DNA of 64,000 nucleotides from positions 2,240,001 to 2,304,000 of the forward strand of contig CBDCJO010000002.1 in NCBI GenBank assembly GCA_965217865.1, written 5' to 3'. The notes below the pieces were generated by a model, which saw only the letters and a list, made by a program, of their open reading frames with translations, did not search any database and was not told where the DNA came from. The stretch's first letter is position 1, and the number at the start of each line of letters is the position of its first letter. The position numbers were made by a program, and so were the translations under genes. This document shows, one piece after another, positions 55,205 to 57,777 of the stretch. The stretch comes from Candidatus Latescibacterota bacterium (GTDB taxonomy: Bacteria; Latescibacterota; UBA2968; SICM01).

Positions 55205-55223
55205 ACCTAACTATTAATTATAC
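55205..55223 (-). other. Integron attI-like simple site upstream of the low-GC gene
   Basis: Minus strand GTATAAT-TAATA-GTTAGGT (L box, 5-bp spacer, GTTRRRY), about 50 bp before the ATG. Confidence 0.4.
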
Positions 55224-55261
55224 AGACCTGTATAGCAACTGCAAACACTGCCAGATCGGTC

Positions 55262-56119
55262 TGTTACTGCTGGTACTGGCTGGCTGACGGATGTCACAAG
55301 GCCGGAATTCCATTCTACCTGGGACACGCCCTGTATATGAAGGCGATCCACGGGGGCAAAAAGAAGAACGACCGTCTCGATTCCAGAATGCTGGCAGAGC
55401 TGATGCGCTGCAACCTGTTCCCGATGGCCTATGCCTATCCGCAAGAGATGCGGGCAACCCGGGACCTGCTCCGGCGAAGGCACCGGTTTGTGGCCTTACG
55501 GGCTGAGTGCTACACCCACATCCAGAACACCTTCTCTCAGCAGGCTATCCTGGATCCTCTCAGCGACCAGGTCAAAAAGAAGACCAGCAGGAGAAAGCTG
55601 TGCGAACGTCTGGCCGACCCAGATCTGGGTATGTCTGTGGGCTGCGATCTGGACCTGGTTGACTCCCTGGACAAAATGATCTACAAAGTCGAGAAGCAAG
55701 TCCTTGCACAGGCCAAACATCACGATCGCAATGCCCTGTCTATCCTGATGACGGTTCCCGGACTTGGGGAGATGCTGGCCATGACCATCCTGTATGAAAT
55801 CCACACGGTTGAACGGTTCAAATCCGCTTCAGCCTTCTCCTCCTACAGCCGGCTGATCAAAGTCGAGAGAGAGTCCGCTGGGAAGAAGACAAAGGACGGG
55901 AATAACAAAATCGGAAACCCACACCTAAAGTGGGCCTTCTCGGAAATCATCCTCGTGGCTCAGCGATGGTCAGAACCGATCAATAGAAACTACGAGAAAC
56001 TCAAGAGCAAACACGGTCCGGGAAAAGCCAAGAGCGTCATCGCTCATAAATTCGGCGTGGCCGCCTACCAAATGCTCAAAAGTGGCCAGGCATTCGACGA
56101 GAAACGGTTTGTAGCATAA
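55262..56119 (+). pseudogene. IS110-family transposase lacking the N-terminal part of the DEDD domain
   Basis: In-frame WYWLAD...GHALYMKAIHGGKKKNDRLD, VPGLG, ESAGK, GNPHLKW; in-frame stop at 55208 and no GID-type motif upstream. Confidence 0.85.
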
Positions 56120-56120
56120 T

Positions 56121-56400
56121 GGGTGGGGCGGTTAACCCGGCAGCTAACTGGCAGGGCAACGTCCGGACAATAGCCCAGCTTTCCCGCTGTGATTGGGAAG
56201 CCGCCTTCACCCCTTATATAGAACATAGATGAGCGGATCTGAGACAGTCAGTCCGTCTGCCCCCGCGATGAACCCGAACCTAACTGGCGTTCCCCCTCAC
56301 AAAAAGGGGAGAACAGCCATCCTTCTTGATTGGGTCGCAAGGGGTACCGATTATTTTCTGGAGGGAGAGGAAAAGCCTCTCCCAGGGCGCTCCACAGAAT
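56121..56400 (+). ncRNA. Candidate IS110 bridge/seek RNA with two homologous stem-loop domains
   Basis: Two modules AACCC-N4/5-CTAACTGGC...TGATTGGG, 137 nt apart, each closed by its own outer stem. Confidence 0.55.
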
Positions 56401-56548
56401 ACCGTGAGAGACGCTTGATTTCCAATACGTGTTTGGTGCAGATGGCTCACATCTAGCCCGGTATGTGAAAATCGAGCCAGACTGGCGACTGACAAAGATC
56501 CGAACATCGCTAAACCTCTTCGGATCGGCTCATTGCAAGTCCCGACCG

Positions 56549-57172
56549 TTAGGGTCGCAAAAAAACGGTGAAAATCGTGATGAAGGGGTCTTTTTTTCTT
56601 GACCCGGGGCCTTTAATATGTGTATACTGGATCAGATCTATCCGCTCTGCAAGGCGGTCCCAGTAAGGCGGCCGGAGGTGCTTGATGACGGCGGGATGGG
56701 AAAAGTCCCAGGTTATCTTGAGCGGACGTTTCTCCGCCTTTTCGAAACCCTCGGCAAGGGCATAAGTCTTCTCCGGCGTCTCGGTGCAGGTATCCCGATG
56801 GACCTCGATGGCCACATCCATCTCCAACCGATCCCCCTCGGCCATTATTCGCCTCGCAAGGTCCACCGCCCTTTTCGTAGGGGTATCGTGATCGAGCAGC
56901 TGCACGTTAACGCACCGGGCCCCCGCTGCTTTTATCCTCCTGAGTTTTGGCACGACCTCTTTTGCCTTCGCGTGATCGGATTGGCACGCAAACAGAAGTC
57001 CTGTTTTGTCCACGATCTCCCGGGTCACCGCCGGAACCCGTCCCGTAAACCCGTCGAAACCCGCTTTTTTGATCTTCTTCAGTTTCTTCTCGATCGACCA
57101 CTCCCCCTTTTTCCCCCCATATCCCCCGAGCGTCCACAGACTTCCCATGTGATGAATCTGAGGTTTTTGCAC
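56549..57172 (-). pseudogene. Sugar-phosphate isomerase / xylose-isomerase-like TIM barrel, 3'-truncated by IS110
   Basis: AGFDG, EVHRDT.TE, TWDFSH; coding-like sequence stops at about 56623 where the IS end begins. Confidence 0.7.
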
Positions 57173-57714: not shown

Positions 57715-57777
57715 CCGACCTCCGACCTCCGACCTCTGACCTCTGACCTCTGACCTCTGACCTCTGACCTCTGACCC
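57715..57777. repeat. Heptamer tandem repeat (CYGACCT) x9
   Basis: CCGACCT x3, CTGACCT x5, CTGACCC. Confidence 0.9.

Follow-up and report, generated by a model that had tools for sequence, protein, structure and literature searches.

The locus considered here poses the question of what is encoded by the long non-coding stretch that follows a transposase gene of the IS110 family, and of what the different parts of its product might recognize. It lies in a window of 64,000 nucleotides of Candidatus Latescibacterota DNA (the whole stretch that was analyzed), in which a reading of the sequence alone had noticed two similar modules downstream of the transposase stop codon and had proposed that they belong to an unusual bridge RNA. 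Bridge recombinases have been described and engineered as two-loop systems, and how IS110-type elements leave a site is disputed. Our analysis indicates that the right end of this element very probably encodes a bridge-type RNA with three homologous loops, two of them of the target type; below we consider the element itself, what each loop appears to read and what the supernumerary loop might do.

The element and its copies

The copy in the window is the right end of an ISGsu4-like element of the IS110 family (Table 1), and is 99.85% identical to two full copies of the same variant, A, in this genome (G000). In total the genome holds nine full copies, namely these two and seven mutually identical copies of a variant B that is 94.6% identical to A, plus several fragments; one of the intact copies occupies G000:C2:528532-530168. 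A circular permutation with its break inside the gene was considered and dropped; the window copy is simply truncated at its 5' end and, because codons 1-65 are missing along with the predicted catalytic residues D15 and E61, it is predicted to rely on the intact copies. The transposase of the latter, 347 aa in length, scores 185 bits against NCBIfam NF033542 (cut-off 140) and matches PF01548 and PF02371, i.e., a DEDD RuvC-like domain followed by a Tnp domain. D15, E61 and S267 are invariant in the protein alignment, with D99 and D102 nearly so; D15 and E61 align to the acidic motif of IS621, the alignment of the two transposases having an E-value of 5e-10. The combination that defines the IS110 family, a DEDD domain and a Tnp domain with a catalytic serine, is present in the full copies and absent from the truncated one. 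Two scans of viral contigs recovered no relatives.

The 13 left and 12 right element ends in the genome show a TG core and unrelated flanks, with no terminal inverted repeats. The non-coding ends of the full element span 89 nt on the left and 503 nt on the right (clade medians 86 and 501), and subterminal inverted repeats measure 4-12 bp over 73 elements, reaching at least 7 bp in 57 of them. The junction of the window copy with the host gene that it breaks recurs in contigs of the public run X10.

A promoter-like arrangement, TTGACC-N18-TATACT, had been read across the right junction. Its first half stands as the conserved -35 box of a predicted circle-junction promoter; the second half, TATACT (56623-56628), is host flank of this single copy, because the copy ends at 56622, inside the interrupted host gene. 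In the reconstructed excised circle the arrangement becomes TTGACC-N17-GATATT, and relatives have a similar box at 17-18 nt. The low-depth assembled contigs of 8 public runs yielded neither a circle junction nor RNA ends; such contigs from public RNA runs cover parts of the element, a coverage that shows neither transcription nor RNA ends.

Some further observations concern individual copies and their surroundings. In the window, a ~55-bp sequence with an internal inverted repeat (55209-55263) takes the place of the element's left part, and two near-copies of it lie upstream of the genes at C2:4959887 and C2:4970753. The copy at G000:C2:1604233-1604719 is internally deleted, with both ends present and the RNA region absent; because its right flank fits the variant B guide and its left end is of the variant A type, it suggests movement in trans. 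At G000:C2:370698-372334 an additional TG at the right junction, as compared with the matching empty site C2:4225770, suggests a two-base slip in excision. Public runs X1, X2 and X9 hold a variant A backbone with the loop-1 right guide of variant B (L001:1288-1299). An intergenic tract of the window (57717-57775) is made of tandem 7-base units of the CCTCTGA/CCTCCGA type.

Table 1. Features of the window copy and of its predicted RNA, with positions counted from the start of the window
Feature	Position	Strand	Remarks
IS110-family element, 5'-truncated, variant A	55270..56622	+	element positions 284-1636 of 1637 bp; left end lost
Transposase gene remnant	55270..56119	+	codons 1-65 gone, including predicted catalytic D15 and E61
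Loop 1 domain, predicted stand-alone target-binding loop with long closing stem	56121..56212	+	fold, covariation
Loop 1 right-target guide, complement of target top strand	56139..56148	+	differs between variants A and B
Loop 1 left-target guide, ending in core TG	56183..56191	+	flank comparison
5' arm of stem around loops 2 and 3 (multibranch domain)	56256..56260	+	pairs with 56438-56442; 92% paired, 76 double-change cells
Loop 2, second target-type loop	56261..56344	+	right guide one base shorter than that of loop 1
Loop 2 right guide	56276..56284	+	target-type near core, A-rich further out
Loop 2 left guide, ending in core TG	56319..56328	+	flank comparison
Loop 3, predicted donor-binding loop	56344..56439	+	covaries with element ends; fold z -5.0
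Loop 3 guides	right-donor 56349-56358, left-donor 56424-56431	+	loop also holds the GGGAGAGG/CCTCTCCC hairpin
3' hairpin with semi-conserved motif at its end (56468-56480)	56443..56480	+	likely 3' limit of conserved RNA
-35 box TTGACC of predicted circle-junction promoter	56599..56604	+	conserved; left-end -10-like hexamer 17-18 nt away in reconstructed circle
9-bp subterminal inverted repeat, right copy	56607..56615	+	complement in left end of full copies
Left-donor sequence and core TG at right end	56615..56622	+	identical at 12 of 12 right ends in the genome
Host gene broken by window copy, not attC	56623..57172	-	66% identical to residues 4-187 of an intact 285-aa paralogue

The predicted RNA and the reading of sites and ends

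To 160 related loci that were fetched we added four, and 150 had enough downstream DNA. Block profiles, seeded on 16 loci and trained on the same loci that they score, recovered six loop blocks in a fixed order in 121 of the 150 (115 with distinct guide sets), down to ~43% protein identity; the 29 incomplete parses include short contigs, interrupted ends and divergent guides. The recurrence of the blocks in order excludes a chance origin of the modules. Both modules that had first been noticed are present as loops 1 and 2, and they fold as had been claimed (z -2.7 and -2.9 against shuffles), the whole region folding with z -4.2, more stably than any of 100 shuffles. The suspicion that there might be more than two loops was borne out by a third at 56344-56439, of which the hairpin GGGAGAGG/CCTCTCCC, correctly listed beside the modules, had gone unparsed as the inner stem. 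All three share a common scaffold: a closing pair, a 9-10-base right guide, a T-purine-purine triplet, an inner stem, a left guide, the core and a closing pair. The exact 137-nt offset that had been reported between the modules holds for AACCC (56134/56271) and TGATTGGG (56190/56327), and fails for CTAACTGGC, which recurs at 136; since loop spans vary widely among relatives, the spacing is not special.

The stems covary, as the test proposed by the sequence-only reading asked. Pairing reaches 89% in the outer stem of loop 1 (44-46% in slid controls), where 376 double-change cells were counted, and 88% at the base of loop 2; loop 3 has a weaker closing stem, with 66% pairing and few double changes. 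Because the stem around loops 2 and 3 is 92% paired, these two loops are assigned to one predicted multibranch domain, with loop 1 standing apart. A length of about 500 nt had been suggested for the RNA. The non-coding end does measure 503 nt, but the conserved structured part takes up only ~360 nt of it (56121-56480). The motif that closes this part lies ~46 nt past the left-donor guide and occurs in 61 of 114 distinct elements, among which no fixed pairing register or partner was found for it. Rfam returned no credible match for the RNA region. A relative annotated as 'ISGsu4 family' has three loops as here, and in distant relatives at ~30% identity (two Rhizobium, one Halorubrum) three loops are not visible by eye.

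Comparison of the loops with flanks and element ends makes it highly likely that loop 1 reads the insertion site and loop 3 the element's own ends, in keeping with the earlier prediction of a bridge-type RNA 3' of the transposase gene. The guides for this comparison were parsed with hand-made patterns; the rows L037 and L048 (faulty parse of loop 1), L204 (truncated), L261 and L264 (ends unusable or doubtful) and the right flank of L266 were dropped, and the pattern failed to catch the left flank of L260. In shuffle tests that ignore kinship, loop 3 matches the element ends with z 11.9 and 7.4 and shows no match to the flanks, and loop 1 matches the flanks with z 6.4 and 4.2 and shows no match to the element ends. 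Independent pairs on the protein tree give the same partition, loop 1 tracking targets and loop 3 tracking donors; at left position 2 of loop 3 the changes sum to 12.3 in the same way as the donor ends and 0 in the opposite way. Across 112 sites with both flanks, loop 1 fits better at 96 and loop 2 at 10, with 6 ties.

The same division is apparent within single genomes. Here, variants A and B differ in their loop-1 guides and have the same loop-2 guides, and right-flank positions 6-7 read TG at all four A sites and CG at six of the seven B sites. Against loop 1 of B, the sites that B occupies score 9.4 of 12 and 27 empty attC-like sites score 7.4 (p=0.003); the same comparison for loop 2 of B is not significant (p=0.07). 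Likewise, genome G070 has three loop-1 variants and a nearly constant loop 2. In retargeted lineages (nine distant relatives, mostly non-attC, of which eight could be scored per arm) the guides of loop 1 fit the new site on either side (p<0.0001 for each arm). The guides of loop 1 thus change with insertion targets, the outcome on which the bridge-RNA proposal had been made to depend. When wobble pairing is allowed, loop-1 matches at right positions 5 and 6 rise from 0.47 and 0.53 to 0.79 and 0.78; the frequent U and G in loop 1 would read the purine/pyrimidine degeneracy of attC by wobble. As a separate observation, the two bases after the right-donor guide (window 56359-56361) are mostly AG in relatives; this complements the dinucleotide most often found ahead of the target core (47 of 127 sites), which is what a handshake pairing that favours insertion would predict.

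The sites entered through loop 1 appear to be mostly R'' boxes of integron attC sites, with the element antisense to the cassette genes. Reconstructed sites read R''-spacer-L'' on the opposite strand, and attC arm pairing exceeds the threshold at 44 of 104 scored sites, 13 of them with the bulge at position 9. The core is TG at 111 of 113 left and 93 of 119 right junctions, a disparity that is overstated, as the TG-seeded end finder missed some GG left ends; this asymmetry suggests a top-strand cut 5' of the core. G000 holds at least 27 empty attC-like sites in small clusters, with three additional bases on one arm and a branched central hairpin; a reversed-genome control gave none. No integron integrase was found in it above the family cut-off of TIGR02249; the top integrase-like match, L219 (G000:C2:1657178-1657988), is a tyrosine recombinase with a frameshift; an attC-like site lies ~2 kb away and a cassette-like gene close by. 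The clade would apparently constitute a further lineage of integron parasites, whose entry into the R'' box of an attC cuts a cassette gene off from its own recombination site. Lineages not aimed at attC retain the three-loop layout.

The second target-type loop

What, then, does loop 2 do? The two modules had by implication been taken as the target and donor loops; neither matches the element ends, both are of the target type and the donor loop is loop 3. The signal of loop 2 against the flanks is weak (z 2.9 and 2.3 in shuffles that ignore kinship), there is no donor signal, and pairs on the protein tree give it little support beyond the core. Near the core it changes together with loop 1: at left position 2, tree-controlled pairs give 16.2 same-way against 1.2 opposite changes, in base sums that count pairs repeatedly. 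At its outer positions, matches in the main attC-targeting set reach 2.12 of 6 against 2.00 when shuffled (z 1.5, or 2.3 at one site per element). Three other assignments were rejected. As a donor loop, it matches neither element end; as a reader of the far (R') end of attC, it faces ends that mostly have C before G and leave the left guide unmatched, as judged by eye; and as a reader of a donor-derived core it has one case in its favour and four against, given that L047, L093, L150 and L168 have GG in loop 1 and at the left junction yet TG in loop 2, with L177 showing CG and L038 alone being as predicted. Inside the element and within ~1 kb of it, no loop-2 target exceeded the level of shuffled guides.

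Retargeted lineages are more informative. In the nine noted above, a small set with seven from a single branch, the left guide of loop 2 follows the new site (3.4 of 5 matches vs 1.8 shuffled, p=0.0001; eight lineages scored per arm), with no significant match for the right guide (3.1 of 7 vs 2.7, p=0.15). Since only the left guide tracks the new sites, loop 2 would seem to follow the site class of loop 1 loosely and mainly on the left. Nor is it decaying, because it shows fewer changes than loop 1 in 17 close pairs and the two change jointly near the core.

One possible, though rather doubtful, reading of this pattern is that loop 2 provides an additional, weaker address for insertion and so broadens the set of site variants open to the element, with loop 1 usually winning. 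The 10 sites that favour loop 2 speak for it, as do the better fits to loop 2 at L025, L049 and L227, the last a 12-base exact match, and the cases of L262 and L263, where the fit of loop 2 almost equals that of loop 1. However, sites with 5-6 outer loop-2 matches number 4 of 112 against 2.2 expected, and wherever the two loops disagree at left position 1 or right position 3 the site sides with loop 1, by 14:0 and 10:0, respectively. Moreover, loop 2 has T at right position 5 in 49% of elements and sites have T there in 4%, and exact loop-2 targets are absent genome-wide from the three genomes searched (G000, G064 and G070). In G064, matches with at most 2 mismatches number 41 for loop 2 and 22 for a control.

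The composition of the right guide bears on another, unlikely, possibility, that loop 2 serves chiefly as a protein-binding placeholder, bringing in a transposase dimer next to the donor loop, with its guides mattering at the core only. Its outer right-guide bases are 53% A, like unpaired loops, this guide is one base shorter than its counterpart and the loop is locked into the domain of loop 3; however, several retargeted lineages have 4-5 left-guide bases that match the flank, beyond what a placeholder needs. We consider it improbable that loop 2 is a jobless leftover duplicate of loop 1, kept alike by repeated copying or gene conversion. The common scaffold, the concerted change near the core and the poor fit of sites would agree with such an origin, whereas its retention in the 121 loci and in relatives at 33-35% protein identity argues against it. 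So do the scaffolds of loops 1 and 2, which remain distinct, the fewer changes of loop 2 between close relatives and the fact that no intact element clearly without loop 2 was seen, the 29 incomplete parses having been inspected in part. That loops 1 and 2 pair two targets, such that the transposase recombines attC with attC and shuffles cassettes without an integrase, is the most improbable of these readings: the core read by both loops is identical and this genome combines empty attC-like sites with the lack of an integrase above the family cut-off, but no product was seen and the layout outlives the attC preference.

The reading that we prefer, and hold to be about evenly poised between right and wrong, is that loop 2 is a relaxed site reader that would engage the DNA on either side of a resident copy when the element is excised or directly transferred. 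By analogy with IS621 and CazIS110, the circle-junction promoter would transcribe the gene together with the RNA, and every loop would draw in one transposase dimer. Loops 1 and 3 would then act in insertion, and loop 2, paired with loop 3 or loop 1, may engage the resident junctions, where weak outer pairing would be tolerated or even helpful. The left-biased match of loop 2 fits such a role, because a left junction retains the left target arm and not the right one. Precedents exist in the accessible portions of three reports: in CazIS110-1 an RNA with a target loop only transfers the left junction to a new target (10.1101/2025.10.25.684509); excision of IS621 is not reduced, and can be raised, by target mismatches (10.64898/2026.08.31.748434); and in the IS621 excision complex the target loop pairs with both flanks (PMC13626964). 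Against the reading of resident flanks, a loop dedicated to the left junction might be expected to match the element's left end, to which the right guide of loop 2 shows no match. Further, loop 2 keeps TG in the four lineages with GG left junctions, and a few sites, such as that of L227, fit it better than they fit loop 1.

A more specific version, which we put forward tentatively, is a three-address RNA, in which loop 1 would specify the new target, loop 2 the old left junction and loop 3 the old right junction, enabling direct site-to-site copying, with loop 2 reprogrammed along with loop 1 at each change of target. If this were true, direct transfer would be hard-wired, and excision versus insertion would be under built-in, separately programmable control. 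A widespread clade with a co-evolving extra target-type loop makes the question of how these elements exit a site directly testable, as the loops can be removed or reprogrammed singly. It would also give tool builders a TG core whose first base is tolerant and, possibly, an independent means of controlling excision.

Relation to known systems

In the accessible parts of their descriptions, IS621 and ISCro4 (PMC11208160, PMC13626964; PDB 8wt6, 9t56) resemble the present element in having a DEDD plus Tnp recombinase, a two-base core, left and right guides for target and donor, and a circle-junction promoter, predicted in our case. Those systems have two loops and an RNA in the left end, whereas here there are three loops in the right end; thus, the canonical two-loop, left-end bridge RNA of the IS621 type is not what is found. 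Further, the guide order is the reverse of theirs, and the core is TG, with U opposite its first base, as against CT.

To the IS1111 seekRNAs, as portrayed in the accessible text (PMC11187229), the likeness lies in the long 3' non-coding end, the subterminal inverted repeats and the top-strand complement placed 5' of the bottom-strand match, an order that holds in all three loops. Both the IS1111-type subterminal inverted repeat of 7-17 bp and the long downstream non-coding region are present, and loop 1, at 92 nt, has the size of a stand-alone seekRNA of 70-100. Unlike here, one target match set is reported per element in that text. The IS1111 motif GL-P----S(t)G given there is absent from our transposase alignment, and the donor guides of our element lie in a simple internal loop that shares homology with the target loops, unlike those of the IS1111 seekRNA.

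Antisense entry near the 5' end of attC is common to our element, the IS1111-attC elements (ISPa21, ISPst6, ISKpn4) and the group IIC-attC introns, going by the accessible accounts of the latter two (PMC3001079, PMC13604230). The insertion point of ISKpn4 lies five bases before the core used here, and our element does not share the insertion point of ISKpn4 and ISPst6 (PMC13604230, to the extent accessible). The IS1111-attC group belongs to a different transposase lineage by motif, and the clade described here also holds non-attC lineages.

By shared protein motifs, in the records as far as accessible, the transposase groups with ISGsu4 and ISMahy12, in a clade that also includes ISGsu5, ISShfr7 and ISShwo5; for these five the accessible literature yielded no description of an RNA structure or a target, ISGsu4 being named in one paper. 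The same literature, with subscription journals and ISfinder lying outside the search, yielded no paper with two target loops in one IS110 RNA, and the 86 bridge-RNA models of a 2026 survey, accessible in part, may include the layout. Within that scope we found no published description of the three-loop layout. A parallel in function is offered by CazIS110-1, in which, according to the accessible part of the report (10.1101/2025.10.25.684509), two target loops and one donor loop likewise cooperate in movement. In that system the additional target loop is a shortened version of the very same RNA and carries identical guides, whereas here it is separately encoded and has guides of its own.
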